A stretch of 64,000 nucleotides of DNA from Gemmatales bacterium (GTDB taxonomy: Bacteria > Planctomycetota > Planctomycetia > Gemmatales > HRBIN36): NCBI GenBank assembly GCA_025060195.1, contig JANXCQ010000017.1:18479-82478 (forward strand), read 5' to 3'. The notes under the pieces are model-generated. The model saw only the letters and a program-made list of their open reading frames with translations, had not been told where the DNA came from and ran no database searches. The translations under genes and the position numbers were made by a program. This document shows, one piece after another, positions 772-53,590 of the stretch (the stretch's first letter is position 1; each line of letters begins with the position of its first letter).

Positions 772-1887
772 ATGGACTGGCTCACGATAGGACTGATTAT
801 TTTCGTGATAAGCTGGCTACAAATTCTGTGTGCTTATCTAATTTACCTGGAACGCAAAGTGGCCGCGTGGGTACAGGATCGGAAAGGGCCCAATCGTGTT
901 GGCCCCTGGGGACTGTTTCAGCCGATTGCAGATGGCCTGAAGTTCCTCTTCAAAGAACAGGTGGTGCCTGCCCACGTGCATCGTTTTTTATATATCCTGG
1001 CACCAAGTATCGCCGTGATCACGACGATGCTGGCGTTTGCTGTGGTACCTTTCGGTCCGACGGATGTCCCTGATCCGAGGCAAAAGCGGTTTATTATCGC
1101 ACCTAACCTAGATATAGGTTTACTATTTATTTTTGCGATCGCAAGTCTAAACGTTTATTCGATTATTCTAGGTGGCTGGGCCTCCAATAATAAATATAGT
1201 CTGTTAGGCTCCTTACGGTCAGCGGCGCAGATTATCAGTTATGAAATTCCTCTGGCGTTATCAGTATTAGGAGTTATAGTACTAGTAGGTTCCTTGAATC
1301 TGGAGCATTTACTAAATGAGCAGGCGAGGTTGGGAATAGGTGGCTGGCTGATCTGGTATCAACCTCTAGGTTGGTTATTATTTTTCGCCAGTGCTCTAGC
1401 GGAATCAAATCGCTTGCCGTTCGACTTACCCGAGGCGGAGCAGGAGCTGGTGGGCGGCTACCATACCGAATATAGTGGTATGAAGTTTGCCATGTTTTTT
1501 CTGGGCGAATATACCCACGTGACGACGGTAAGTTTGCTGATGGTGATTCTCTACTTTGGTGGCTGGCACTTTCCGTTCGTCGCCGAATTTAACGCGAATT
1601 ATCCAGGTGCCACCGGGGTGAAGGTGCTCGTTTTGTGGACTAAGGCGAGCTTAGTTATATTGGTGATCATGCTCCTGCGATGGACGTTACCTCGCTTCCG
1701 CTTTGATCAGCTGATGCATTTAGCGTGGATGGGTTTGGTGCCGCTCTCCCTGCTCAATTTACTAAGTGTCATGATAGTGCGGCATTGGTCACTAAGCCCC
1801 TGGCTGTTATTACCATGCTCTGTGATAATCCTCACTGCCATTCCGCTATTGCATCGGTGGAAATCGCGCCAGCTTGACTGGGCTTAG
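772..1887 (+). CDS. nuoH: NADH-quinone oxidoreductase subunit H
   Basis: Motifs ERKVAAWVQDRKGPNRVGP, QPIADGLK, NRLPFDLPEAEQELVGGYHTEYSG, RWTLPRFRFDQ. Confidence 0.97.
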   Translation: MDWLTIGLIIFVISWLQILCAYLIYLERKVAAWVQDRKGPNRVGPWGLFQPIADGLKFLFKEQVVPAHVHRFLYILAPSIAVITTMLAFAVVPFGPTDVPDPRQKRFIIAPNLDIGLLFIFAIASLNVYSIILGGWASNNKYSLLGSLRSAAQIISYEIPLALSVLGVIVLVGSLNLEHLLNEQARLGIGGWLIWYQPLGWLLFFASALAESNRLPFDLPEAEQELVGGYHTEYSGMKFAMFFLGEYTHVTTVSLLMVILYFGGWHFPFVAEFNANYPGATGVKVLVLWTKASLVILVIMLLRWTLPRFRFDQLMHLAWMGLVPLSLLNLLSVMIVRHWSLSPWLLLPCSVIILTAIPLLHRWKSRQLDWA

Positions 1888-1899
1888 GAGGGCAAGATC

Positions 1900-2478
1900 A
1901 TGCCAATAGCCCCCTCCGAGGTAAAGTGGATAGATGAGCGTACTTTGAGTCCCTGGGACTGGCTTTACTTACCTGCTTTGTGGGAAGGGCTAAGCACAAC
2001 CGTGCGCCATATGTTTTCTAAGAAAGTCACTATTGAGTTTCCGGAGCAACGTCCTTCGGTTCCACCGCATTATAAAGGTGTGCATCGGCTGAATCGGGAT
2101 GAGCAAGGCCGTGTACGGTGTGTGGCCTGCTATTTATGTGCAACAGCTTGTCCAGCACATTGTATAGATATTGTTGCGGCTCCATCCCCTTGGCCGGATC
2201 GCGAGAAGTATCCTGAATTATTTGTGATAGATGAGTTGCGTTGCATTTATTGCGGGATGTGCGAAGAGGCGTGTCCCGTGGATGCGATTGAGTTGACTAC
2301 GCTCTACGACTTAACTGGTTTTTCTCGAGAGGAGATGTTGTTTGATAAGGAAAAACTGCTGGCAGTTTATGACTATACGGTTAACAAAGGCACAGATGCG
2401 ATCCGCACATTGCGGGGAACTTTGGGGCCAGCATCAGAAATTCTGGAGCAACAGTCTGCCCCGTTGCCAAATACATAA
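1900..2478 (+). CDS. nuoI: NADH-quinone oxidoreductase subunit I
   Basis: Two CxxCxxCxxxCP 4Fe-4S motifs (CVACYLCATACP, CIYCGMCEEACP); AGGAGG RBS. Confidence 0.96.
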   Translation: MPIAPSEVKWIDERTLSPWDWLYLPALWEGLSTTVRHMFSKKVTIEFPEQRPSVPPHYKGVHRLNRDEQGRVRCVACYLCATACPAHCIDIVAAPSPWPDREKYPELFVIDELRCIYCGMCEEACPVDAIELTTLYDLTGFSREEMLFDKEKLLAVYDYTVNKGTDAIRTLRGTLGPASEILEQQSAPLPNT

Positions 2479-2614: not shown

Positions 2615-3814
2615 ATGATGAACGTCTTAACAAAACTGGCCGGATGGGTTTTGGATTATAGCTGGGCGGGACCTGGGGTGGCCTTTGTTTTAGGTGCGAT
2701 CATCGGGAGTTTCCTGAATGTGTGCATTTATCGCCTGCCAGTAGGTGAGAGTATATTCTGGCCGCCCTCGCGCTGTGGCCATTGCGGCCAAAAAATTCGT
2801 TGGTATGATAACATTCCCCTGGTGAGTTATTGGGTTCTTCGTGGCCGTTGTCGGCGCTGCGGAGCGCGATTTTCCATGCGTTACTTTTGGATCGAATTGC
2901 TGACGGCGACGCTTTTCGCTTTGGCATTTTGGTGGATAGTGCAACGGGACGGTTACGGCTTTGTAACGCAGTCGGGCGGACAGTTGTTCAGTCGTGAGGA
3001 GATTCAAGCGTTGGAGGGCTGGGACACGGAGCAGCGTTTGCGGGCTTTGCAGGAAAGGGTAACGTTGCGATTGATTGGGGTCTGGCTTTATAACATGGTG
3101 CTGGCGGCAATGTTGATCGTGGCGACGTTTACCGATATAGACACAATGACGATTCCCTTGCCCTTGACGATTGTGGGGACAGTACTAGGCTGTGTAGCGG
3201 GGGCGTGGGCGGCTTGGCCTTGGCCGATGGCTCCGGAAATGCCGCGGTTGTCTCCTTGGGAAATGGAGCTGGTGCAGTATGGTGGATTGGCTAGCACTGC
3301 GACTATTTTGCCGGTGCCGTTAGGAGCGCAACTCTGGCCGGTGTGGTACCCTTTGCCAAGTTGGGTACCCGCGGGGAGGTGGTGGACAGGGTTGGTGAAT
3401 GCGGTGGTGGGGGCGGCGTTCGGCACGGGGCTGATGCATCTAATCCGAGCATTGTTCTCGTGGGCGTTTCGACGCGAAGCGTTGGGCTTAGGCGACGCCG
3501 ATCTCATGATGCTTATTGGCGCTTTCCTTGGTTGGCAGGGAGTGCTTGTGGCGCTGGGTGCCAGCGTGTTTCTCGCGCTGGGCTATGGGATTTTTTTGCT
3601 GATCACCGCCCGAGGACATGAATTACCATTTGGCCCATTCTTAGCGGGCGGAGCGTTGCTGACTATGGGGACCGCACATTGGGTTATGAGGCCTTTACAG
3701 GCGGTATTTTTTGACCTGCCGTTGTTACTCATCTTGGCCGCAGTTTTCACGATACTTTCCGTGTTCTTAGGTATGGCCATCCGCTTGGTTACTCTGATTT
3801 TGTCAGCTCGTTAG
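2615..3814 (+). CDS. pilD: Prepilin peptidase (A24 family, PilD-like) with insertions
   Basis: GSFLNVCIYRLP, Zn-binding CGHC/CRRC, DNIPLVSY, catalytic TDID and LGLGD, PFGPFLA; ATG at 2615 preferred over upstream GTG at 2561. Confidence 0.9.
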   Translation: MMNVLTKLAGWVLDYSWAGPGVAFVLGAIIGSFLNVCIYRLPVGESIFWPPSRCGHCGQKIRWYDNIPLVSYWVLRGRCRRCGARFSMRYFWIELLTATLFALAFWWIVQRDGYGFVTQSGGQLFSREEIQALEGWDTEQRLRALQERVTLRLIGVWLYNMVLAAMLIVATFTDIDTMTIPLPLTIVGTVLGCVAGAWAAWPWPMAPEMPRLSPWEMELVQYGGLASTATILPVPLGAQLWPVWYPLPSWVPAGRWWTGLVNAVVGAAFGTGLMHLIRALFSWAFRREALGLGDADLMMLIGAFLGWQGVLVALGASVFLALGYGIFLLITARGHELPFGPFLAGGALLTMGTAHWVMRPLQAVFFDLPLLLILAAVFTILSVFLGMAIRLVTLILSAR

Positions 3815-38068: not shown

Positions 38069-39253
38069 TCAGGACGAAGGCGGCGAGGGCGAGCAATAGC
38101 AGGCGGCCACGGTCTGGAGGATCTCAACTAGGGGTCGGCCAGTCTGACGCGCCAAGCGTGCGCAGTCCTCATACTCGGGGCTAAAACGAGGCGGACCCTG
38201 AGGGACGTGAACCAGTTTTCCGCGTACAGGCCCCCAAGGCGTGGACACTTCGATATTATCTCGCGGATATTTGTGGCGCTGGCAACTGTAGTGGCGGACA
38301 CCTAATGTTCGGGTTTCGCGGAATAAGATGTTTTCCAGTTTGCCGACGTTCGTGGGTTCAGCCAGAACGGTGATCAACACGCCGGGACGATTTTTCTTCA
38401 TATAAACTGGTTGCAACAGCACGTCCAATGCCCCGGCGGCGAATAATTGTTCCTGACAGTAAGCCAGTGCCTGCGGAGTCACGTCATCTACTTGCGTTTC
38501 TAAAACAGTGATGGTTTCCTCAAGCACACCTGCCGGGGCTTGGGTAGTTCCAAGTATCAGGCGCAGCACGTTAGGTCGGTCTGGGAAATCCCGGCTGCCT
38601 GCACCGTAGCCGACATTTTGTACCGTAAACGCGGGCAGAGCTGTCCACTCTTGAACCAAGGTGGTGAGAATGGCGGCGCCCGTGGGAGTGGTAAGTTCGG
38701 CTTCAACGCTCGACGGAGCCAGCGGCACGCCTTTGAGCAGTTCCAAAGTTCCTGGCGCTGGGATCGGCATCCAACCGTGGGCGCCGCGCACCTGACCTGT
38801 ACCGGTAGGCACGGGCCGGCTGGTATAGCGTTCCGGACGCAGCCAACATAGGCCGACGGCCACTCCGACAATATCCGCGATGCTGTCCAAGGCACCGACT
38901 TCGTGGAAGTGCACTTGGTCCACGGCTTGCCCGTGGACGGCAGCCTCGGCCTCGGCCAGTCGGCGGAAGATCCGTAAGGCCAAATCTCGCGCCTCAGCGG
39001 GCAGATCGCTTCGGAGCAAAATCTGCTCAATGTCGCGTAAATGGCGATGGTGATGCTCGTCCTCGGCCTGCACACGCGCTTGCACGGCGGCGAAGCCGCA
39101 GCGCTTCACCGGCTCAAATTCCACGCGCATGGGCAGATGTAAGCTGGCCAGCCCCGCTTGGATCACCTCCGCAGGCACGCCTAAGCTGACCAGCGCTCCT
39201 AGGGTCATGTCGCCACTGATACCGCTGAAGCAGTCAAAATGCAGCACCCGCAT
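38069..39253 (-). CDS. larC: Nickel pincer cofactor biosynthesis protein LarC
   Basis: FDCFSGISGDMTLGAL, HHHRH, VHFHEVGALDSIADI, ELTTPTGAA, MKKNRPG, PEYED; ATG at 39253. Confidence 0.93.
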   Translation of the reverse strand: MRVLHFDCFSGISGDMTLGALVSLGVPAEVIQAGLASLHLPMRVEFEPVKRCGFAAVQARVQAEDEHHHRHLRDIEQILLRSDLPAEARDLALRIFRRLAEAEAAVHGQAVDQVHFHEVGALDSIADIVGVAVGLCWLRPERYTSRPVPTGTGQVRGAHGWMPIPAPGTLELLKGVPLAPSSVEAELTTPTGAAILTTLVQEWTALPAFTVQNVGYGAGSRDFPDRPNVLRLILGTTQAPAGVLEETITVLETQVDDVTPQALAYCQEQLFAAGALDVLLQPVYMKKNRPGVLITVLAEPTNVGKLENILFRETRTLGVRHYSCQRHKYPRDNIEVSTPWGPVRGKLVHVPQGPPRFSPEYEDCARLARQTGRPLVEILQTVAACYCSPSPPSS

Positions 39254-39375
39254 GCACGCTATTGTATGGCCGGCGGAGTGACCAGCACGGCTTTGTGAGC
39301 TATGCTTTGCAAGAGCGGGCTGAGATGTATTACTGACGATGAAGCATCCACTTTGGCTCGGCACGGGGGATAAAT

Positions 39376-39762
39376 ATGCGGAAAGGGGTGTGGCTGAGAC
39401 CGACGGCTTTGGTGTGCATCCTTGTGGCAAGCGAGGCTGGTGCGCAGGAGATCCTGAGTCCGAGCGGCAGGTACTTCGTCCGCATCAGCACGGTGCCCTC
39501 GATTAGCCATTACTATCCCGCTGGGGCGGTATTTTTACCTTACGTGCCGCCTGTGCAGCCGAATTTTTCGCAAGTGGAACTGTACTACCCATCCGCGTGG
39601 CGTTATTATCCCAACATCCGATTTGCCACGGATTATTACTGGTATCCGTACCCTTATTACAACTACTATGTGCATATGCCGGGCTACTGGTTCGGCCCTG
39701 GAGGATTACCGCCTGAAGGGGAAGCGCCGTTGCCGGCACCTCGACCGCAGCCGCGACAATAG
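39376..39762 (+). CDS. Small secreted Tyr/Pro-rich protein
   Basis: Signal peptide (AGA|Q), YYWYPYPYYNYY tract, Pro-rich tail. Confidence 0.65.
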   Translation: MRKGVWLRPTALVCILVASEAGAQEILSPSGRYFVRISTVPSISHYYPAGAVFLPYVPPVQPNFSQVELYYPSAWRYYPNIRFATDYYWYPYPYYNYYVHMPGYWFGPGGLPPEGEAPLPAPRPQPRQ

Positions 39763-44318: not shown

Positions 44319-45755
44319 CTAGTGAGAGCGCTGTAGTTGGCTTTGCCATTGCTCGACGAGCTTGCCGATATCCCGGTAGAAATAGTCGAGGTTGGCGACC
44401 TCCGTGCCGAGGCGAAGAGCGGTTTCGTAATCTTTGTCCTGAGCCGCCAGTACTGCTAACTCGTAGAGCAGTTCCTTGCGAAGTTCTTCTTCGTTCGCAG
44501 GTAAAACTTCGAGAGCTTCCTGAAAATTGCGTTTGGCCAAGGCATAGTTTTTCTTATGAATAAAACATTTGCCCAAGCCAATCAACGCTCTGCAAGCATG
44601 TTTGGGATCCTTGCGGGCCAGTTGGAACTCACGGATAGCCTCATCCAACAATCCGAGGAGCATCAGGCGTGTCGCCAAGGCGACACGCGCCGCGTTATCA
44701 TTGGGGTAGCGATCCAGCCGCGCGCGATACAAGTCCATTTCTCTACGAAGTATCTCTAAGGCCAGTTTCTCCCGTAGCTGTTTTGCTAACTCGTCGTCGG
44801 GATTCTCTTCGACACGGCGATTGGCCACGCGAAGATTCTCGCGTAGCGACTCGATTTCGATTTCCGCTAGGGCTTGGTTCAGCTCAAACTGGGGGCCAGC
44901 CTGCTTTAGGCCCTCATGAAGCACGTGAAGAGCGTCTTCCAGTTTGCCGCGCCGCTTATAGATATCAGCCAGGCTGAGATAATGGGACACATGAGAGGGG
45001 TCGGCCGCAATCCGCTGGCGAAGCAAGTCGATTTGATGCTGCATCGGGTCGGCAAGACCGATGGTGGGTTCTCTGGGAGTGTCGGCCTCGGATTCGCCAT
45101 GCTTGGCGGAGACCATCTGTTCTTGGGCTCGGGCAATGTGGCGTTCGTAACCGCCGCGCGCGATGGTTTCCATAGCGGCCAAGTCTTTCTGCTTGCGGTG
45201 GGCCTCATCATCGGTGGGACAGAGTTGGGCGACAATGGCCCAGAGCTTAACCGCCTTCTGAAAATCTCCTAAGCGCTCACATAGGCGTGCGTACTGCCGA
45301 TGGCTCGCCGCATGGTGCGGGTCAGCGCCACATGCCGTCTCATAAAGCCAAGCGGCCAGATTGTATAATTCCAAAGCCTCCGCGGCTTGGCCCATGGCCA
45401 GGAGTGTGCTTACGTCCCAGGGATTGCTACACAGAATACGCTCACCTAAAGCCAGTACATCGCGGTAATCCTGTTGTTGCTGAGCTAAGCGGAGTTTGGC
45501 ACGTTGCCGCAACGTTTTCAACCATGCCCACCAACGCCAAGGTCGGCGATTATGCCAACGGGCCTTTTGCACGCTTCGCAGTTGTTGGCGATACTCTAGA
45601 TTCGCTGGGTCTAAGCAGCAACATTCCTGCAGCAACGACATGGCATAATCCAATCCCTTGCCGCCTTGCCGGATTAGCTGCCGTGCTCGTTCGTATTGTT
45701 GGCTGGCGACACGACGCTGCTCGGGAGTGACCTGGAGAACTTGGCGCACACTCAT
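44319..45755 (-). CDS. TPR-repeat protein
   Basis: TPR helices; C-terminal YELAVLA...ANLDYFYRDI; ATG overlaps the mptG stop (ATGA). Confidence 0.82.
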   Translation of the reverse strand: MSVRQVLQVTPEQRRVASQQYERARQLIRQGGKGLDYAMSLLQECCCLDPANLEYRQQLRSVQKARWHNRRPWRWWAWLKTLRQRAKLRLAQQQQDYRDVLALGERILCSNPWDVSTLLAMGQAAEALELYNLAAWLYETACGADPHHAASHRQYARLCERLGDFQKAVKLWAIVAQLCPTDDEAHRKQKDLAAMETIARGGYERHIARAQEQMVSAKHGESEADTPREPTIGLADPMQHQIDLLRQRIAADPSHVSHYLSLADIYKRRGKLEDALHVLHEGLKQAGPQFELNQALAEIEIESLRENLRVANRRVEENPDDELAKQLREKLALEILRREMDLYRARLDRYPNDNAARVALATRLMLLGLLDEAIREFQLARKDPKHACRALIGLGKCFIHKKNYALAKRNFQEALEVLPANEEELRKELLYELAVLAAQDKDYETALRLGTEVANLDYFYRDIGKLVEQWQSQLQRSH

Positions 45756-46789
45756 AGTCGGCCTCGCATGGTTGGATTTTGCGGATAACGCGCCCCCCGG
45801 ACATGGCGCGGAACCCACTCCCCAGATTGGTGTTGGCATAAGATAGCCCCGTCCAGGCTCGCTCTAGTAATGATAATGCTACCCAAGGTAGCATTCAAAT
45901 GCACGTCCACCTGAGTGAGCACTTCTTGCAAGCGTTGTTCTGGAGCGATAAGAAATACCGTGGGCCCCCAGGAGGACTGGCCGACCGCCACGGGTGCATA
46001 TTGCCGCAAGAAGGCCACCAAGTCCACTACCTCAGGACTATGATAACTTCCTGCTTGCCACGCCTCGAAACACTTTCCCGCCAAGCGATTATACTCCCAT
46101 AGCCCCTCAGCGAAGTCCTCATAGCGCCCTTCCAATAGGGCAGGAATGATCTGCAACAGGGCGAGCCGGCATAAGCGTTCACTAACACGATTGGCCTCTG
46201 GCCCCAGCTGGGCGAACACTGCTTGTTCTTGGGCACCATGCAAGCCCCGAGCGTCCTTGGGCAAAAATAGGGCTACTTGCCATTCTTGCGGAAATTCAAA
46301 ACGCAGATAAGTCGCGGTCTGCGAGCTATCGCCAGCTCGCCCGAGATCCACGATGAAACCACCACTGGCAAAGACTGCAGCACCCACCTTGGAGCGGGCG
46401 CCCCGTCCTGTCCAGCGGAGCAGGTCAGACAACGACGGGTCGAAGTCAGCGCTGCGGGCCACTAACCACGCCAGTGCGCAGGCCAATTGCGTGCCGCTGC
46501 CCAAGCCGACGTGAGCGGGTATCGCCCGCACGATGTGGATGTCCAACGGTCGCGCTTGGCCCAGAGCTTGGTGCTGCAGGAGTCGGGCCAGATACCGCTC
46601 CGCCCGTTCCGCTTCCTCACCCCGAACTCGCCAAGCACTTGACGGACGAGCTTCCATCAGATAGCCAGGCTCTGCCAATCCCAACCCTAGACCGCCATAA
46701 CGCCTCACCTCGCCCGGGCCGGGGACCAGTAAGCCGAAGTGAAGTCGGCTCGGCGTCTGGATGCGTATGGGAGAAACCGAGGCGTCCAT
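45752..46789 (-). CDS. mptG: Beta-ribofuranosylaminobenzene 5'-phosphate (RFAP) synthase
   Basis: PSRLHFGL, GHMP motif IPAHVGLGSGTQ, GRGARS.VG...F..GGFIVD.G, GQSSWGPT. Confidence 0.92.
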   Translation of the reverse strand: MDASVSPIRIQTPSRLHFGLLVPGPGEVRRYGGLGLGLAEPGYLMEARPSSAWRVRGEEAERAERYLARLLQHQALGQARPLDIHIVRAIPAHVGLGSGTQLACALAWLVARSADFDPSLSDLLRWTGRGARSKVGAAVFASGGFIVDLGRAGDSSQTATYLRFEFPQEWQVALFLPKDARGLHGAQEQAVFAQLGPEANRVSERLCRLALLQIIPALLEGRYEDFAEGLWEYNRLAGKCFEAWQAGSYHSPEVVDLVAFLRQYAPVAVGQSSWGPTVFLIAPEQRLQEVLTQVDVHLNATLGSIIITRASLDGAILCQHQSGEWVPRHVRGARYPQNPTMRGRL

Positions 46790-46942
46790 ATCTCCTAATC
46801 AAGGCCTTGGCGGCTCTGATGGCAAGCCTGACTTTAATAAGTTCCTGCTTGGTGCGTTCCCTCACCGCCTGAGCCATTATTAAAGAGTTTTTCCGCATGG
46901 ATTCGGTTGGGAAGAAAACCCGTCGCGCATCTCGCTTCAACC

Positions 46943-47548
46943 TCAGCATTGTGCGCTCCCATGCGCGTGTATATACCGATGCAACAGGGCGAACGCGGCA
47001 TGCTCCCTTGGGCCGCCGGTTTTTTCTACCAACGGCTGAAGTCGGCGGAGTTCGTCGCATACTTGTTCGAACGGCAAGATATGAAGACGTGTCGCCAAGA
47101 TGGCGGCCTCCAGGACGGCATGACACGCCCGATTAAATCCGAGAAAATCACGAAATCGGCCACAGGCTACCACCTCGGCGCGCAGCAGGGCACGTTCCGC
47201 ACGGTCGTCCACCTCAACAATGCGAAACTCATAATAACGGCAAACGTCCTGGACAACGTAACCGAGCACCTGGTGCGCCGGTCGCACCTCGGGGAACGGC
47301 TCGACGGCATCGATGGCCGCTTGTGCCAGCAACAGCACGTCATCGGTCAAGTGAAACACCCCTTCCGGATGGTGCCGCAGATTACGATAGGTCTGCGCCG
47401 TCTGAAATGGACGCAGCAGCATGCGATGCCAATTCACTCGCGGACGGCCATGAACGTCCAGGTCTTCGGGCAGAATGGTCGCTCCCATGGGGGCCAGGTG
47501 CAACTGGTTGTCCGGCGTCAGAGTGCTCACCAAACCTTCCAGGATCAT
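46943..47548 (-). CDS. DUF447 family protein (methanopterin cluster Orf22-like)
   Basis: MILEGLVST, HLAPMG, RPFQTAQTYRNL, GFNRACHAVLEAAILATR, KTGG..E. Confidence 0.85.
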   Translation of the reverse strand: MILEGLVSTLTPDNQLHLAPMGATILPEDLDVHGRPRVNWHRMLLRPFQTAQTYRNLRHHPEGVFHLTDDVLLLAQAAIDAVEPFPEVRPAHQVLGYVVQDVCRYYEFRIVEVDDRAERALLRAEVVACGRFRDFLGFNRACHAVLEAAILATRLHILPFEQVCDELRRLQPLVEKTGGPREHAAFALLHRYIHAHGSAQC

Positions 47549-47567
47549 TTACCCTCTGTTGACTCCA

Positions 47568-49055
47568 CTACTCCAGGGCACGCAAGATTCCCTCGGCCTT
47601 ATGCAGCGTTTCTTCATATTCGCGAGCAGGTTCGGAATCCGCCACAATGCCGCCACCTACGGGGAACTGAATCCATCCTCGAGCCACCGTACAGGTGCGA
47701 ATCAGGATGTTCCACTCCGCGCTACCATCGAAACCGAGAAATCCTAGGGCACCACAGTAAGGCCCGCGCACGGTTGGTTCCAGTTCGGCAATGATCTCCA
47801 TGGCGCGTACCTTGGGCGCACCTGTAACCGAACCACCGGGGAACGCCGCACGCAACAAGTCGAAGGCATCACACTCGGGCCGCAATTGACCGCGTACCAC
47901 GCTCACCAGATGATGTACCGTGCGATAGCTCTCCAGCCGACATAAGTCCGCCACCTGAATCGTGCCATAGCGACAAACCCGGCCCAAGTCGTTCCGCAAC
48001 AAATCCACAATCATGACGTTTTCCGCACGGTCTTTGCCACTGGTCAACAGCTCTTGCTGCAAGCGCAGGTCTTGCTCGCCAGTGGCTCCACGCGGACGCG
48101 TTCCCTTGATGGGACGAGTCTCCACCCAACCGTCCGGGCTGACCCGCAGGAACAACTCGGGCGAAGCGCTGACCAGGACGTATTCTCCCGCGTCAAAATA
48201 CCCAGCGAACGGCGCGGGATTGCACTGGCGCAAGCGCCCGTACAGCTGCAACGGGCTGAGCCGTGCCGGGTACAGCAGCCGCTGCGCCAAATTGACTTGG
48301 AAACAATCCCCCGCATGGACATAGTCAATAGCGCGACGCACGGCGGCCTCGAAACCCGCCCGCGAAAAATTGCTGGTCAGTCCGGCTAACCGCGGCAGCG
48401 AGAATTGCGGACACCATGACACCGCGGGCTCTGCCAATTGGGTCGCATGACGCTGCGTCAAATCCACCCCAGGCCGATGCTCGAGCCACGCTTGCACCTG
48501 ATTCAACCGTTCCCAGGCCCGACGGTAACGCTGCTCGACCTCCGGTTCGGGCCAGCCGCTACTCACCAGCCAGCATTGCTCCGTCTGGTGATCCCAGGCC
48601 AATACCCAATCATACACGCCGACGACTAATTCGGATAAGCCCAATTCATCTTGGCCCGCACGAGGCACCCGCTCCAAGTGCTGCACCAGTTCATAACTCC
48701 ACACCCCTGCGGCACCGCCTGGAAACGGCGGTAAATCCCGATGTGGCCACTGCCGAAAGGGAGCGAGGAAACGCCGCAACGCTAGCCACGGGTCGCCGTG
48801 TTCCAAGAACGTTTGGCCCTGATAGTGCCAACGCAACTGACGACCCCGCGCACGCAACACGGCAAACGGTTCGGCCGTCAACCAGGAATACCGCCCACAT
48901 TCGCCGCCGACTTGCACACTTTCCAGCAAAATCGGCATCGAAAGATCAGCCAAACGCAATAAGGCGTCCCAAGGCGTGAGCTTACTCGCCCACGGCACCG
49001 CGAGCGGCAAGGCCGTTTGCAGGCGTTCAGTCGTGGCCGATGCTAATGCGGTCAT
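47568..49055 (-). CDS. pabB: Aminodeoxychorismate synthase component I
   Basis: GDCFQVNL, SPELFL, TRPIKGT (PabB-type Lys), KDRAENVMIVDLLRNDLG, FPGGSVTGAPK. Confidence 0.9.
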   Translation of the reverse strand: MTALASATTERLQTALPLAVPWASKLTPWDALLRLADLSMPILLESVQVGGECGRYSWLTAEPFAVLRARGRQLRWHYQGQTFLEHGDPWLALRRFLAPFRQWPHRDLPPFPGGAAGVWSYELVQHLERVPRAGQDELGLSELVVGVYDWVLAWDHQTEQCWLVSSGWPEPEVEQRYRRAWERLNQVQAWLEHRPGVDLTQRHATQLAEPAVSWCPQFSLPRLAGLTSNFSRAGFEAAVRRAIDYVHAGDCFQVNLAQRLLYPARLSPLQLYGRLRQCNPAPFAGYFDAGEYVLVSASPELFLRVSPDGWVETRPIKGTRPRGATGEQDLRLQQELLTSGKDRAENVMIVDLLRNDLGRVCRYGTIQVADLCRLESYRTVHHLVSVVRGQLRPECDAFDLLRAAFPGGSVTGAPKVRAMEIIAELEPTVRGPYCGALGFLGFDGSAEWNILIRTCTVARGWIQFPVGGGIVADSEPAREYEETLHKAEGILRALE

Positions 49056-49257
49056 GACCAGCAAGGTACCTCAGTATAGTGCGGGCTATAGCTAGCCCGG
49101 CACGGTGTGTTGTTACCCATGGGCTGATTCGACACATCTGTGAACAATCATATGACTTAGCCGTTATCGAGTTGCCCAGAACGCGGCCAATTGACGTTCG
49201 GCGCTCGTCTGGCGCTAAGAACCACTTGTCTTGGTAACAACCTGCTAATGAGCGGGA

Positions 49258-50616
49258 CTAAGCTTGGTCGCTGCCATGGGAGTTCTCAGGGCGCGTGAGC
49301 AAACCCCATTGTAGGGCTTCGTCCTGAACATAGTTCTTGCCCAGAGTCAGCGCCGTAACCGCCTTAGCCATTTCATAACCTAAATAAAAAGCATGGTCAG
49401 GTTCGAGGTTCTCCTGGCGCAGGATCTCCCGAATGATGCGGAACGGGTCTTGGCCCCGCCAATAGCCTCTACCGCTAATGACATGGAGCTGGTCATCCTC
49501 GGCGAAAATACGAAAATTCCGATCGCGGATTTGTCGTGCCCATTCTTGGAGTAACTGGCTACCATAACGCCGCAATCGTTTATCTCGGAGCATAACTAGG
49601 CGGGGGTCTAAGTTCTTAGGCGGCACCCGCTGCTCGACGGCATAGCATACTATACGCCGGGCTAAGTCTAATTCACGAACACAAGTGCGACACCAGTTAG
49701 CTACCTGAGTGGTCAGAACGCTCGTGATATTCAGTTCCTCACAGAATCCCGCCAGCAGCAAGTTAATACCGGCGGAGTCGACCTCTGAGAGTTCCGTGAG
49801 GTTACCGACCCCCATAAGCATCTTCACTTCGGGATAGCGCCGACGTACTTCGAGATAGCGACCTAATGAGGCGGCAAAACCGCTTCCGATGGGCTCTAAT
49901 ATAGGGTCGACCCGAAACGGTACTCCCCGAGATGCGAGCCATTCTATATTTCGATCTAAACCCTCTAAGTTTGCGGGAACGTCGGGTATCAGCACTACTT
50001 CACTGCCCCAGTCGGGAGCAGCTTCGATGTTCGAGCTATGCACACTAAGCACTAACTCCGCTCCCGCTCGCACTGCTTCGCTGATCTCCTGAACATTGAA
50101 ACTGTCCACGGAGACGCGGAGTCCGGCATCGCGTAGGCATTTAACTGCATCGCCGATAGTCGTCCACGTAGTTCCCGGCTCGCAACCTAAGTCAATGATG
50201 TCGGCGCCTTCGCGGCGTAGCCGTTGGGCTTCCGCCAGTAATTCCTCGCGCGTCAGACGAGGAGCATAGTTAATTTCCGCCAGGATTTCGATGTGATACT
50301 TATCTAAACTCACTTGCCGCTTCTGTCCGAAATAGCTGGGCAGGTCGATCAGATCTTTAGGGCCTACCTCGACAGGGACCTTAGCTTTTTGCAGGAGGGG
50401 GGTCAAGTCTCCACCACACCATCCTGGGATCATAATACGGTCTATATGTTCGGGAGGCTGTAAGTGTCGGGCGATCCAGTCAGGCGTCATGAGCGCAGCC
50501 ACGCTGATATTGAGAACAGCTATCTCATACTCCCAGCCCGCCTTGGGAGCTAACTCAGCTAACACACGTCTTAGCGCCGGTTCCGCTAATTTCCCAGTTA
50601 CAAATAAGTAGCGCAT
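49258..50616 (-). CDS. Dihydropteroate-synthase-like protein of the methanopterin pathway (Orf20/DUF6513-like)
   Basis: LFVTGKLAE, VAALMT, GPKDL.DLP.YFG, GADIIDLGC, DPILEPIG.GF..SL.RY, HAFYLGYE, YVQDE.L.WG. Confidence 0.88.
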   Translation of the reverse strand: MRYLFVTGKLAEPALRRVLAELAPKAGWEYEIAVLNISVAALMTPDWIARHLQPPEHIDRIMIPGWCGGDLTPLLQKAKVPVEVGPKDLIDLPSYFGQKRQVSLDKYHIEILAEINYAPRLTREELLAEAQRLRREGADIIDLGCEPGTTWTTIGDAVKCLRDAGLRVSVDSFNVQEISEAVRAGAELVLSVHSSNIEAAPDWGSEVVLIPDVPANLEGLDRNIEWLASRGVPFRVDPILEPIGSGFAASLGRYLEVRRRYPEVKMLMGVGNLTELSEVDSAGINLLLAGFCEELNITSVLTTQVANWCRTCVRELDLARRIVCYAVEQRVPPKNLDPRLVMLRDKRLRRYGSQLLQEWARQIRDRNFRIFAEDDQLHVISGRGYWRGQDPFRIIREILRQENLEPDHAFYLGYEMAKAVTALTLGKNYVQDEALQWGLLTRPENSHGSDQA

Positions 50617-50640
50617 AGAACATCGGCAGGCCCACGAGGG

Positions 50641-50668
50641 ACTGTATTTAGTGGTACATGGGTGTCAA
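50641..50668 (-). promoter_or_regulatory. Possible sigma70 promoter of the DHPS-like gene
   Basis: Minus strand TTGACA-16 nt-TACAGT about 25 nt upstream of the ATG. Confidence 0.45.
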
Positions 50669-50867
50669 GATAGCTTATAGTACCGATACAGTTATAACCT
50701 GACTGAAGTCACGCTCCATATACAGTGGCACATGGACGCCAGGATAGCTTCCAAGGACTAAACCTGCGAGGCTGGCGTTTGGCACTCATTGATGTAAGCC
50801 CCGCGGTTCTATATACTGCTTAGAGGTCTATGCTTAGAAGGGGGATAGCTGGCCTCTGGGTCTAAGC

Positions 50868-51212
50868 TCATTCGACCCACTTTTTGGGAAAGCCCGGCAG
50901 CGGCGAACCAGGCTCCGGTTTCCAGGTGGCTAATTGTTCGATGCGTTTGGCCAGTTCGAAATCGAGTTCGGTGATGCCGCGGACTTTGTGCGTCTGTAAT
51001 TTCACGGTCAGCTCGGCATAGCCCAAGGTGAGATCAGGATGGTGGTAGGCGGCCTCGGAAATGTAGCCAATAGCGTTAGCCAGCAACAACGTGTGGGCGT
51101 AGCCTGGCGTGCGGTATTTGCGACGCAGCCAGCCTTCGCGATATTCCCAATGCGGTAATTGCTGCAACCGCTGTTGAATTTCCTCTTCGCTCAGCACACG
51201 AAGCTCGACCAT
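50868..51212 (-). CDS. Pterin-4-alpha-carbinolamine dehydratase
   Basis: EAAYHHPDL, LQTH...GITELDFELA. Confidence 0.9.
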   Translation of the reverse strand: MVELRVLSEEEIQQRLQQLPHWEYREGWLRRKYRTPGYAHTLLLANAIGYISEAAYHHPDLTLGYAELTVKLQTHKVRGITELDFELAKRIEQLATWKPEPGSPLPGFPKKWVE

Positions 51213-51238
51213 AAGTTACCTCCCCCTTCGAGTGGCCA

Positions 51239-51652
51239 TCAGCCTTCGCGGTTGGGTGCATAGGTAGCATAGCAACTTTCGGTTTCCCAGAGACTGACGG
51301 AGACTACGGGAAATCCCTCACGCTGGGCGTATTCATAGATGAGGCGCGCTATGTTTTCTGCAGTGGGATTAACATCTAACACATAAAACGGCTCTCCCAA
51401 TTGGCGCAGATAAGGCAGGATCGGATCATCGCGGTGCAGAATCATCTTGTGGTCAAGGTTCGCATCTATCCAGCCTTGAATAACCCGTTTGATCTGGCCA
51501 AAATCTAGTACCATGCCTCGCGCATCGAGGTGTGGTGCCTCTAAAGTGATTACCGCTTTACCGTTATGGCCATGCAGGTAGCGACATTTGCCATCATAGT
51601 TCAGCAAGCGATGGCCATAACAGAAATAAATTTCGCGCGTGACGCGATACAT
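51239..51652 (-). CDS. queD: 6-carboxytetrahydropterin synthase / PTPS family
   Basis: F.YGHRL, CRYLHGHN (Cx3HGH), DF, LDH, PTAENIA, WET. Confidence 0.88.
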   Translation of the reverse strand: MYRVTREIYFCYGHRLLNYDGKCRYLHGHNGKAVITLEAPHLDARGMVLDFGQIKRVIQGWIDANLDHKMILHRDDPILPYLRQLGEPFYVLDVNPTAENIARLIYEYAQREGFPVVSVSLWETESCYATYAPNREG

Positions 51653-51755
51653 CAGGAATCTCCCCTCAGCTAGTAGGCTGGGAATGCGCGACTAAGAAAA
51701 TTATCAGGGGCCTCTATTTCTTAGAGTAGAGGACGACTGAATGGCCGAAGGTTGA

Positions 51756-52436
51756 TCAATTCGCATATTCTGTGGGATCGGGCAAGCCACACCGAGCGAA
51801 CGCCTGCTGACGTTCGGCACACTTGTTACAGCGACCGCAGTGGCGTTGCTGTTGCGGGCTGATGCAGGAGAAGGTCCACTGCAAGGGGAAAGCCTGCCCC
51901 GCAGAAATTACCTGCGTTTTATCTAAGTGGCGCAGGGGCTGAAGAATGCGTAAGCGGGCTTGACAGGCTTCGTTGACGAGGTCGGCCAGGTGACGCATAA
52001 AAGTCGGCGTGGCGTCTGAGAAGGGATTGCCTTTGAGCGTTCCCAGCGCTAGTACGCCGACGTTATTCAGGTGGCACCACAGCAGCGCTTTGCTCAGGAG
52101 CAAGACGTTGCGTCCTGGCAGATAAACTGCTTCATCCGGCGAATTAGCATCGGGCACTTGGCGACCATCCAGGCTCCAGTGTGCCCCGTAGAGGTCGGCC
52201 ACGGGTACTTCCAGCAGCACTAACGGCTGCAAACTCGGCAGGCGCAGGTGCTGGAGAAACTCGCGGAGGTAATACAGTTCCACCGCTTCCCAAAGCAAGC
52301 CGCATCGGATATATACCGGGTGCACGCGATGCTGCCGTTGTGCGGCCAGCGCTAGTAGTACGGCACTATCTAACCCGCCACTGACTAAGACGGCCAAAGG
52401 CTCTTCGGGAGTGATGCTGGAAAAGTCGGGGGTCAT
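51756..52436 (-). CDS. QueC-like PP-loop ATPase (divergent)
   Basis: SGGLDS, PGRN, Zn motif FSC-x8-CGRCNKC.ER, DPT.Y; canonical YGQ and YPDC motifs are altered. Confidence 0.85.
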   Translation of the reverse strand: MTPDFSSITPEEPLAVLVSGGLDSAVLLALAAQRQHRVHPVYIRCGLLWEAVELYYLREFLQHLRLPSLQPLVLLEVPVADLYGAHWSLDGRQVPDANSPDEAVYLPGRNVLLLSKALLWCHLNNVGVLALGTLKGNPFSDATPTFMRHLADLVNEACQARLRILQPLRHLDKTQVISAGQAFPLQWTFSCISPQQQRHCGRCNKCAERQQAFARCGLPDPTEYAN

Positions 52437-52563
52437 GATTGGGTATCGTTGTCGCGAGATCAGACAGTCTCTGCCGGTCGCGGCTCAGGGAATTGTATGA
52501 GCTGAATTTCGGAATCCACTTATCCGCGCCCAGGTGGGTCGCTGGACGTGGGGATGGGCTAAG

Positions 52564-52592
52564 TTGACAGCCGGGCTTGGTTAAGCGATAAT
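52564..52592 (+). promoter_or_regulatory. Sigma70-type promoter of prs
   Basis: TTGACA-17 nt-GATAAT. Confidence 0.7.
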
Positions 52593-52630
52593 GGCGGCAG
52601 ACAGCTAGTGGCGGCAACTCGGAGCGGGGC

Positions 52631-53590
52631 ATGCATGATAATAATTTCGAACTCAAGGTCTTCAGTGGGCGGAGCCATCCCCAGTTGGCCGCGGATATTT
52701 GCCAAGCCCTCGGGATTCCGTTAGGCAAAATCTCGTTAGGTAACTTTCCCGACGGCGAGATTTCAGTGCGAATTGAGGAAGATGTACGCGGACGCGACAT
52801 TTTCCTTGTGCAGCCGACCTGTCCGCCGGTGAACGAGAACCTGATGGAATTGCTGATCATGATCGACAGCTTCCGTCGGGCCAGCGCGGCGCGAATCACT
52901 GCGGTGTTGCCTTACTACGGTTATGCTCGACAGGATCGAAAGGACGTGGGGCGTGTGCCGATCTCGGCCAAGTTGGTAGCTAACTTGCTTACGGTAGCCG
53001 GGGCCAATCGCTTGCTGACTGTGGATTTGCATGCCTATCAGATTCAGGGGTTTTTTGATATTCCTGTGGATCATTTGCTGGCGGCACCGGTGTTCGATGA
53101 GTACATCCAGCGCACCTTGCGGCTGCGCGCTGAGGAGATTGTGATTGTCAGTCCCGATGAGGGCCGGATCAAGATGGCGTTAGCCCATCAGAAGAAGCTG
53201 GGGGGCGGCTTAGCGATTGTAGATAAGCGGCGGGCCAGTGCTACGGAAACGAGGCAGGCCAACTTAATCGGCGATCCGTTGCGCGGGAAAATTGCCCTGC
53301 TGTTTGACGACATGATCGCCACCGGGGGCAGCATTGTCGGTGCGGCCCAGGTTTGCAAGGCTCACGGAGCGCGGGCGATTTATGCCTTTGCTAGCCATGC
53401 GGTACTGTGCGGTCCCGCCATTGAGCGGTTACGCGAAGCACCGTTTGACGAAATCGTGGTCAGCGATAGCATTCCCGTGCCGGCGCACAAACGTCTGCCG
53501 AACCTAAAGATACTAAGTCTCGCCCCGATGCTGGGCGAAGCGATTCGCCGAATTCATCGCAACGAATCGGTCAGCGCTTTATTTCAATGA
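52631..53590 (+). CDS. prs: Ribose-phosphate pyrophosphokinase
   Basis: FPDGE, PYYGYARQDRK, DLHAYQIQGFFDIPVD, VSPD, DDMIATGGS. Confidence 0.97.
   Translation: MHDNNFELKVFSGRSHPQLAADICQALGIPLGKISLGNFPDGEISVRIEEDVRGRDIFLVQPTCPPVNENLMELLIMIDSFRRASAARITAVLPYYGYARQDRKDVGRVPISAKLVANLLTVAGANRLLTVDLHAYQIQGFFDIPVDHLLAAPVFDEYIQRTLRLRAEEIVIVSPDEGRIKMALAHQKKLGGGLAIVDKRRASATETRQANLIGDPLRGKIALLFDDMIATGGSIVGAAQVCKAHGARAIYAFASHAVLCGPAIERLREAPFDEIVVSDSIPVPAHKRLPNLKILSLAPMLGEAIRRIHRNESVSALFQ

Follow-up and report, generated by a model that had tools for sequence, protein, structure and literature searches.

The 64,000-nt stretch of Gemmatales DNA analyzed here (GenBank assembly GCA_025060195.1, contig JANXCQ010000017.1, positions 18,479 to 82,478; hereafter the window, with positions counted from its first nucleotide) encodes a QueC-like PP-loop ATP pyrophosphatase next to a QueD-type 6-pyruvoyltetrahydropterin synthase homolog of class I (PTPS-I). 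In queuosine synthesis, QueD converts dihydroneopterin triphosphate to 6-carboxy-5,6,7,8-tetrahydropterin (CPH4), QueE converts CPH4 to 7-carboxy-7-deazaguanine (CDG), and QueC activates the carboxylate of CDG with ATP to give preQ0. The QueC-like protein belongs to a family that is sharply separate from canonical QueC, rare, patchily distributed and strongly conserved. Our favored reading, held tentatively and with somewhat less than even confidence, is that it is a QueD-coupled enzyme, independent of queuosine, that would use ATP to amidate CPH4, and that it lies beside genes of tetrahydromethanopterin (H4MPT) synthesis in this lineage only. An earlier note on this DNA had proposed a QueC paralog acting on a carboxy-pterin in a methanopterin-specific role. 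The carboxy-pterin is still the best available explanation; the methanopterin-specific role did not hold up.

The two genes, assigned like the others in the window by Pfam and NCBIfam profile scores of the translated open reading frames (ORFs), are as follows:

51756..52436, minus strand: QueC-like PP-loop ATP pyrophosphatase, 226 aa (Pfam QueC, 95.5 bits)
51239..51652, minus strand: QueD-type PTPS-I, 137 aa, with the motif C23-x3-H27-G-H29 (PTPS, 110 bits)

The PF06508 match to the QueC-like protein covers residues 16–215 of 226 and is far above the gathering cut-off of 22 bits, while the QueC equivalog model TIGR00364 gives 67.3 bits, below its cut-off of 150.3. The motifs quoted in the earlier note are all found in the translation. 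VSGGLDS, LPGRN and the C(x)8CxxCxxC zinc site are present, with YIRCGLLW where YGQRH is expected and GNPFSDAT where GYPDC is expected. The protein matches QueC in size and lacks any additional RNA-binding domain. Its AlphaFold2 model has a pLDDT of 96.1, and the nearest solved folds are Cap9 and QueC, about equally distant.

The rest of the genome (3.94 Mb in 126 contigs, 93.4% completeness) carries a queuosine gene set of its own. A canonical QueC is encoded on contig C42 (PF06508, 243.6 bits; TIGR00364, 196.3 bits, above the cut-off) and is adjoined by QueF (TIGR03139, 170.4 bits against a cut-off of 86.9). Encoded on C33 is a QueE-like radical SAM protein: its five best NCBIfam matches are QueE models, all below their cut-offs. 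The tRNA-guanine transglycosylase (TGT) is on C54 (532.4 bits). The QueC-like gene of the window is therefore a paralog, as had been claimed, and the genome's queuosine pathway exists without it. The claimed lack of queE and queF from the 64 kb also agrees with the NCBIfam scans, which found neither in the 10 ORFs of the island scan nor in 47 further ORFs of the window that are 100 aa or longer. Weak PF06508 matches occur elsewhere in the genome on C46 and C49.

A scan of 185,579 species genomes recovered 441 relatives, of which the best 80 loci were taken; 69 of the 80 are flanked by 600 bp or more on each side, and the counts of loci given here refer to these best 80. A protein search returned thousands of matches, the best 120 being 55–95% identical to the window protein. 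The named matches of the family are all called '7-cyano-7-deazaguanine synthase' (QueC), and the ESM Atlas supplies generic QueC names only. The Planctomycetota loci are in Gemmatales, Gemmataceae, Isosphaeraceae (including two Singulisphaera genomes), Pirellulales and Phycisphaera. The others are in Verrucomicrobiia, Acidobacteriota, Acidimicrobiia and other Actinomycetes, Omnitrophota and Nitrospirota, with a few metagenome bins that have unlikely taxon labels. Singulisphaera acidiphila DSM 18658 (locus L044) is a cultured carrier. Strong family-profile hits were found in 2 of 151 genomes of an Actinomycete class sample and in 1 of 201 evenly sampled Planctomycetota, that one being the genome of the window. 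One further genome of the 201 has a degenerate relative (L113; G225:C147:66500-73500, ORF 3114-3779, minus strand), divergent from Planctomycete-type QueD, in which the PP-loop reads SGGMIS, RN and NPFxD are missing, and the zinc cysteines remain. We found no description of the family in work on QueC paralogs, QueD, pterins, methanopterin, pteridine reductase or DUF4254. The main-text Results of the PF06508 survey by Libby et al. 2026 (PMC13329287), in which cluster 1 comprises 91% of PF06508 at a coarse threshold, single out no such clade.

The separation from canonical QueC is visible in the tree, in the alignment and in profile scores. Seventy-six family members were aligned with 17 canonical QueCs, leaving out five loci for which no ORF was picked. 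In a quick maximum-likelihood tree (IQ-TREE), the 17 canonical rows and the 76 family rows fall apart with SH-aLRT support of 100 and long branches. The earlier note had asked whether sequences of the NPF.DAT type form a clade linked to mptG and orf20; they do form a clade of their own, and the link to those genes is not supported. Across an alignment of 55 members, the mean column identity is 59% and 50 columns are invariant. The family signature is SGGxDS...RxG[LF]xWE...HWS...LPGRN...NPFxD[AS][TS]...FSCI...HCGRCNKCAER, in which W49, E50, H86-W87-S88 and the N-K of CGRCNKC are family invariants absent from canonical QueC. In the 35 carrier genomes surveyed below, PF06508 scores 73–118 bits for the family copy, present in all 35, versus 139–254 bits for a second homolog, present in 16.

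What is kept is the ATP and zinc machinery. The SGGxDS PP-loop and the C(x)8CxxCxxC site are invariant in 76 of 76 members, R and N are likewise universal in the LPGRN that stands in the place of VPxRN, and E42 and D133 are retained (in YxQxHxxE, the final E alone). What is replaced lies at the positions of Y35 (T, C, F, S, V and others, never Y), Q37 (L, S or A), H39 (W in 75 of 76), Y131 (F in all 76, giving F-x-D-[AS] in the place of YPDC), C134 (A or S in 75 of 76) and Y189 (I, L, M or V in all 76). According to the main-text Results of PMC13329287, Y35A, Y131A and Y189A abolish function in E. coli QueC, Y131F is partly active, and R99 is essential; three of these four essential residues are substituted in every family member. 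The alignment shows that the predicted substrate pocket has been remodeled with the PP-loop, the RN motif and the Cys4 zinc site retained, in agreement with the divergent motifs that the earlier note had read from one sequence.

The family is coupled to QueD. A PTPS is the sole widely conserved neighbor, found by tblastn in 54 of the 80 loci, and 51 loci have an intact neighboring ORF with CxxxHGH, all 51 of the PTPS-I motif. In the motif classes given in PMC5041015, CxxxHGH without Glu marks PTPS-I (QueD; COG0720), and CExxHGH marks a PTPS-I/III hybrid class. The window protein, with GKCRYLHGH, falls in the former. On TIGR03367 it scores 80.5 bits, just below the cut-off of 89.25, with the motif present, and its activity is presumed to be that of a 6-carboxy-5,6,7,8-tetrahydropterin synthase. 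The partner PTPS is usually less than 200 bp away on the same strand. In Planctomycetes it is usually directly downstream of the QueC-like gene, and in Actinomycetes it is directly upstream, with the genes overlapping by 4 bp. Two QueD lineages serve as partner, GKC[RK]xLHGH and H[KR]CxRLHGH, and therefore a functional rather than an inherited linkage is favored. The known PTPS-I classes share the motif of these partners; the difference is that the partner here is a non-canonical QueC, including in 12 genomes in which QueE was not found. The coupling to QueD rather than QueE, as the earlier note had it, thus extends well beyond the window.

Other neighbors are more local. In nine Actinomycete loci (L060, L067, L068, L073, L080, L082, L083, L085 and L087), QueD and the QueC-like gene form a block with a GT9 glycosyltransferase and an uncharacterized protein (about 400–450 aa) that has no Pfam hit. 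In the loci scanned, a luciferase-like monooxygenase stands at one end, on the QueD side, and on the opposite strand are DUF4254 and a thioredoxin-reductase-like flavoprotein. The block looks like an uncharacterized small pathway. A UbiD neighbor in Verrucomicrobia was rejected as a functional partner; it is a menaquinone decarboxylase of the SCO4490 type (623 bits, above cut-off).

To follow the family against queuosine, folate and H4MPT genes, 35 carrier genomes were chosen from the 80 loci, making 36 with the window's own. PTPS was present in all 36 and pterin-4a-carbinolamine dehydratase (PCD) in 35. The family copy is the only QueC homolog in 19 of the 35 carriers. The other 16, namely fourteen Planctomycetes, one Acidobacteriota and one Acidimicrobiaceae, also have a PF06508 protein in the canonical range, and strong QueF occurs in these sixteen alone (0 of 19 genomes without canonical QueC). 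QueE was found in 23 of the 35, in 20 by TIGR03365 and in three by TIGR04508, a model of the Cx14CxxC type. It was not found in the remaining 12 (G004 and G021–G031) with TIGR03365 and TIGR04508, four of them being scanned with TIGR04322 as well. TGT was not found in nine of these 12, nor in G095, a carrier from the unbiased class sample. That the gene occurs in genomes where QueE, QueF or TGT was not found counts in favor of the earlier note's reading.

Paralogy, a differing pocket, coupling to QueD and occurrence without QueE, QueF or TGT together make a carboxy-pterin substrate plausible. We favor QueC chemistry on a changed substrate because the ATP and zinc machinery is kept, the pocket is altered, QueD is constant, the neighbors are of pterin type, and the gene occurs where QueE and TGT were not found. 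We read the window as combining an ordinary H4MPT island (PCD; an Orf20-type protein resembling dihydropteroate synthase, Orf20/DHPS-like; PabB; DUF447; MptG; and Prs in divergent orientation) with a separate and presumably mobile two-gene module consisting of the QueD-type PTPS-I and the QueC paralog. In the mechanism we propose, QueD would convert dihydroneopterin triphosphate to CPH4. The QueC-like protein would then adenylate the C6 carboxylate of CPH4, as QueC does with CDG, and the activated carboxylate would pass to ammonia or another amine. The product is predicted to be 6-carboxamido or 6-cyano tetrahydropterin or a pterin–amine conjugate. The whole route would be independent of queuosine synthesis.

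A number of observations weigh against this reading. Most of the carrier genomes are metagenome bins whose completeness is unknown, so that absences among them mean 'not found'. An obvious client of a tetrahydropterin cofactor is aromatic amino-acid hydroxylase, and it was found in only 10 of the 36 genomes, the window's own not among them; cofactor supply to these hydroxylases is thus a weak candidate for the role of the pathway. In favor of a pterin context, six loci in four phyla have a short-chain dehydrogenase/reductase (SDR) next to QueD or to the QueC-like gene, and its best NCBIfam match is pteridine reductase NF006598 (167–251 bits). However, all six scores fall short of the 288-bit cut-off, and ordinary SDRs also match the model: it is non-specific on the window's own genome (eight SDR matches), and a control matched 13 of 14 genomes. 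Because of this cross-hitting, the SDR is a lead only. Three rare fusions to a CCA-adding enzyme, taken up below, hint at tRNA. The remaining points concern queuosine itself and are best considered with the rival that they favor.

That rival is a divergent QueC of unchanged function, a second preQ0 synthase acting on CDG that would be redundant in Planctomycetes and the only copy in Verrucomicrobiia and Nitrospirota. We consider it unlikely, with real points in its favor. The family has the Pfam family, fold and approximate size of canonical QueC, and it keeps the PP-loop, the RN of VPxRN, E42, D133 and the Cys4 zinc site. Its frequent QueD neighbor is typical of queC operons, QueC–QueD adjacency being a hallmark of true QueC that is seen in 32.6% of cluster 1 (main-text Results of PMC13329287). 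In two loci, L016 and L023, a QueE of the Cx14CxxC type directly follows the QueC-like gene and QueD; the canonical pathway requires QueD as well, which both explains and blurs this arrangement. Most directly, seven of the 19 genomes that have the family copy alone (six Verrucomicrobiia and one Nitrospirota) have clear QueE and TGT, a pattern that fits a working QueC. However, none of these seven has a QueF match above 28 bits, which would leave preQ0 without its reductase, and therefore neither reading gives a complete pathway there. Further against unchanged function are the 12 carriers in which QueE was not found, nine of them also without a TGT match, and the coexistence of both QueC types in 16 of 35 genomes. 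The family is also a separate clade, the window protein scores well below the TIGR00364 cut-off, and the three essential residues that it replaces in all members are kept by Cap9, which uses CDG (PMC13329287, main-text Results).

In four Verrucomicrobiia (loci L091–L094; genomes G013, G014, G016 and G018), QueE and TGT are present, and canonical QueC and QueF were not found. At L091–L093, QueE lies between a class-III aminotransferase with a LuxE-like acyl-adenylate enzyme and a GFO/IDH/MocA oxidoreductase; at L094, only the class-III aminotransferase is near QueE. One may speculate that these genomes take CDG to preQ1 by a carboxylate–aldehyde–amine route that bypasses QueC and QueF.

An improbable alternative is a ligase in the manner of Cap9 (type IV CBASS) or QatC (QatABCD), which would adenylate CDG or a carboxy-pterin for ligation to the N-terminus of a protein or to some other amine instead of ammonia. 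These two QueC-family protein-deazaguanylating ligases show that the fold can be used away from preQ0 to ligate protein amines (PMC13329287, main-text Results). Cap9 (9nto_B) is the top PDB match to the QueC-like protein by sequence (E = 1.6e-12, over the C-terminal half) and by fold (E = 4.8e-11), and the rarity and patchiness of the family resemble those of accessory systems. However, Cap9 keeps the Y/FxQ and YxDC motifs that the family has lost (same source), and the PADLOC Cap9 model gives the QueC-like protein 80.5 bits versus 76.9 for the genome's canonical QueC. QatC has long extensions and other motifs; the PADLOC QatC model reaches 15.8 bits on the QueC-like protein. No CD-NTase and no QatA-, QatB- or QatD-type neighbor occurs in the window or among 131 neighbor proteins of 13 loci, and no conserved candidate acceptor protein adjoins the QueC-like gene. 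A defense role was rejected in view of the lack of defense neighbors in that same set and the lack of preference in PADLOC.

The methanopterin-specific branch of the earlier note, in which the QueC-like protein and QueD would tailor the pterin half of H4MPT or open an alternative route to it, is very improbable. What speaks for it is the window itself, the arrangement kept in three relatives, an MptG gene in the wider surroundings at L053, and MptG in nearly all Planctomycete carriers. All seven genes of the claimed run from queC-like to mptG are present, intact and on the minus strand, so that the pair is co-oriented with five H4MPT genes. The range given for the run, 45752..53590, also takes in Prs on the plus strand, which the earlier note did not name. 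The features besides the pair are the following:

50868..51212, minus strand: PCD (pcbD; NF002017, 92.6 bits against a cut-off of 80)
50641..50668, minus strand: weak sigma-70-like promoter match, TTGACA-16-TACAGT (10 of 12 positions match)
49258..50616, minus strand: DUF6513 + Pterin_bind + DUF4346 protein, Orf20/DHPS-like, of the Orf20/MptH type (Pfam domains above cut-offs)
47568..49064, minus strand: PabB, aminodeoxychorismate synthase component I (TIGR00553, 334.8 bits against 328.4; Chorismate_bind, 300.9 bits)
46943..47548, minus strand: DUF447 protein (DUF447_N, 44.4 bits; DUF447_C, 56.3 bits)
45752..46789, minus strand: MptG, beta-ribofuranosylaminobenzene 5'-phosphate synthase (TIGR00144, 133.8 bits against 113.5)
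52631..53590, plus strand, divergent from the island: Prs, ribose-phosphate diphosphokinase (NF002320, 413.3 bits against 297)

MptG catalyzes the first committed step of H4MPT synthesis, PabB supplies p-aminobenzoate, and phosphoribosyl pyrophosphate is the co-substrate of MptG. The DUF447 protein is one that we take to be of the Orf19 type and tied to H4MPT islands. On TIGR00284, the Orf20/DHPS-like protein scores 197.7 bits, below the cut-off of 256.65. PCD starts 26 bp after QueD, and a 251-bp gap that holds the promoter match separates PCD from Orf20. That match, if functional, could divide the run into a QueC-like/QueD/PCD unit and an Orf20-to-MptG unit; it is weak, because the evidence is at the level of the consensus and the region has six promoter-like sites versus 3.5 +/- 1.6 in shuffles. 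Shared regulation of the pair with the H4MPT genes is possible. Housekeeping proteins, among them Nuo subunits, flagellar proteins, PurB, a zinc ABC transporter and LarC, make up the products of the 47 further window ORFs. LarC (38069-39430, minus strand) belongs to the nickel-pincer cofactor, and its partner LarE is another member of the PF06508 superfamily.

That the run is an H4MPT island is clear from the MptG score above its cut-off, from Mch elsewhere in the genome and from a second cluster on contig C126. The companions claimed by the earlier note, PCD, Orf19/DUF447, Orf20, PabB and MptG, are indeed reported in methylotrophs, where the islands are arranged as orf19-orf20-afpA-orf21-orf22, pcbD-mptG and pabB (PMC3615186). 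The passage of that paper on H4MPT genes names no QueC or QueD homolog among them, and the QueC-like/QueD pair is an addition to this gene set in the window and its relatives (4 of 81 loci, the window counted).

H4MPT genes flank the QueC-like gene in three of the 80 loci, L011, L012 and L013, which are the closest relatives (73–95% identity) and keep the arrangement to their contig limits, with Prs in the same position. MptG is about 7 kb away in L053, and the other 76 loci have no H4MPT gene in the fetched flanks. MptG was found somewhere in 15 of 16 Planctomycete genomes and in 0 of 20 non-Planctomycete carriers, and even among evenly sampled Planctomycetota, a strong family member was confined to the window's own genome. 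The adjacency is thus a lineage-specific juxtaposition in a small Gemmatales group and not a defining link.

The genome also offers a simpler source for the pterin of H4MPT. A second PTPS is encoded on C126 (L008; G000:C126:46885-50322, ORF 1435-1959, plus strand) among MptN-like ATP-grasp, CitG-like and HisA/F-like genes, with Mch (361.9 bits) just upstream. Its motif, CERLHGH, places it in the PTPS-I/III hybrid class (PMC5041015), and it is more likely than the island QueD to provide the H4MPT pterin precursor. It probably supplies 6-hydroxymethyl-dihydropterin for both folate and H4MPT. FolB was found in 0 of the 16 Planctomycete genomes; Pribat et al. 2009 reportedly noted that folB is missing from Planctomycetes.

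FolB was found in 19 of the 20 non-Planctomycetes, and 6-hydroxymethyl-dihydropterin pyrophosphokinase (HPPK, FolK) in 35 of the 36 genomes, so that replacement of FolK or FolB by the QueC-like protein was rejected. In the genome of the window, HPPK (G000:C11:101267-102460) is a 429-aa frame that also matches an SDR model of the pteridine-reductase type (135.5 bits), and HPPK frames of 400–470 aa recur in most other Planctomycete genomes, which suggests a FolK–SDR fusion.

Action on tRNA or another RNA rather than a free base is scarcely probable: in the metagenomic fusions P0123, P0124 and P0126, a family member (residues 443-663 in P0123) is joined to an enzyme of the CCA-adding/poly(A) polymerase type, and tRNA-acting PP-loop relatives such as TtuA and ThiI are among the fold matches, but each fusion is one sequence on one contig, the protein is QueC-sized with no extra RNA-binding domain, and the coupling to QueD would be left unexplained. 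A further metagenomic fusion, P0125, joins a family member to a class-III aminotransferase. These four single-copy fusions may be real or may be read-through gene calls.

Returning to amidation of CPH4, a broader form of this reading is possible, if rather doubtful: QueD and the QueC paralog would constitute an unrecognized two-enzyme pathway that starts from dihydroneopterin triphosphate and yields a new class of pterins (carboxamido, cyano or amide-linked), maintained in reduced form and recycled by pteridine-reductase-like SDRs and PCD, spread horizontally through at least seven phyla, and co-opted beside H4MPT genes in this Gemmatales lineage. Automatic annotation labels PF06508 matches as the preQ0 synthase QueC. 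If a pterin carboxylate is the substrate, the '7-cyano-7-deazaguanine synthase' annotations of this family are wrong, and CPH4 would gain a second metabolic fate besides queuosine. Planctomycetes, Verrucomicrobia, Acidimicrobiia, Omnitrophota and other groups would then harbor a novel pterin metabolite or cofactor.

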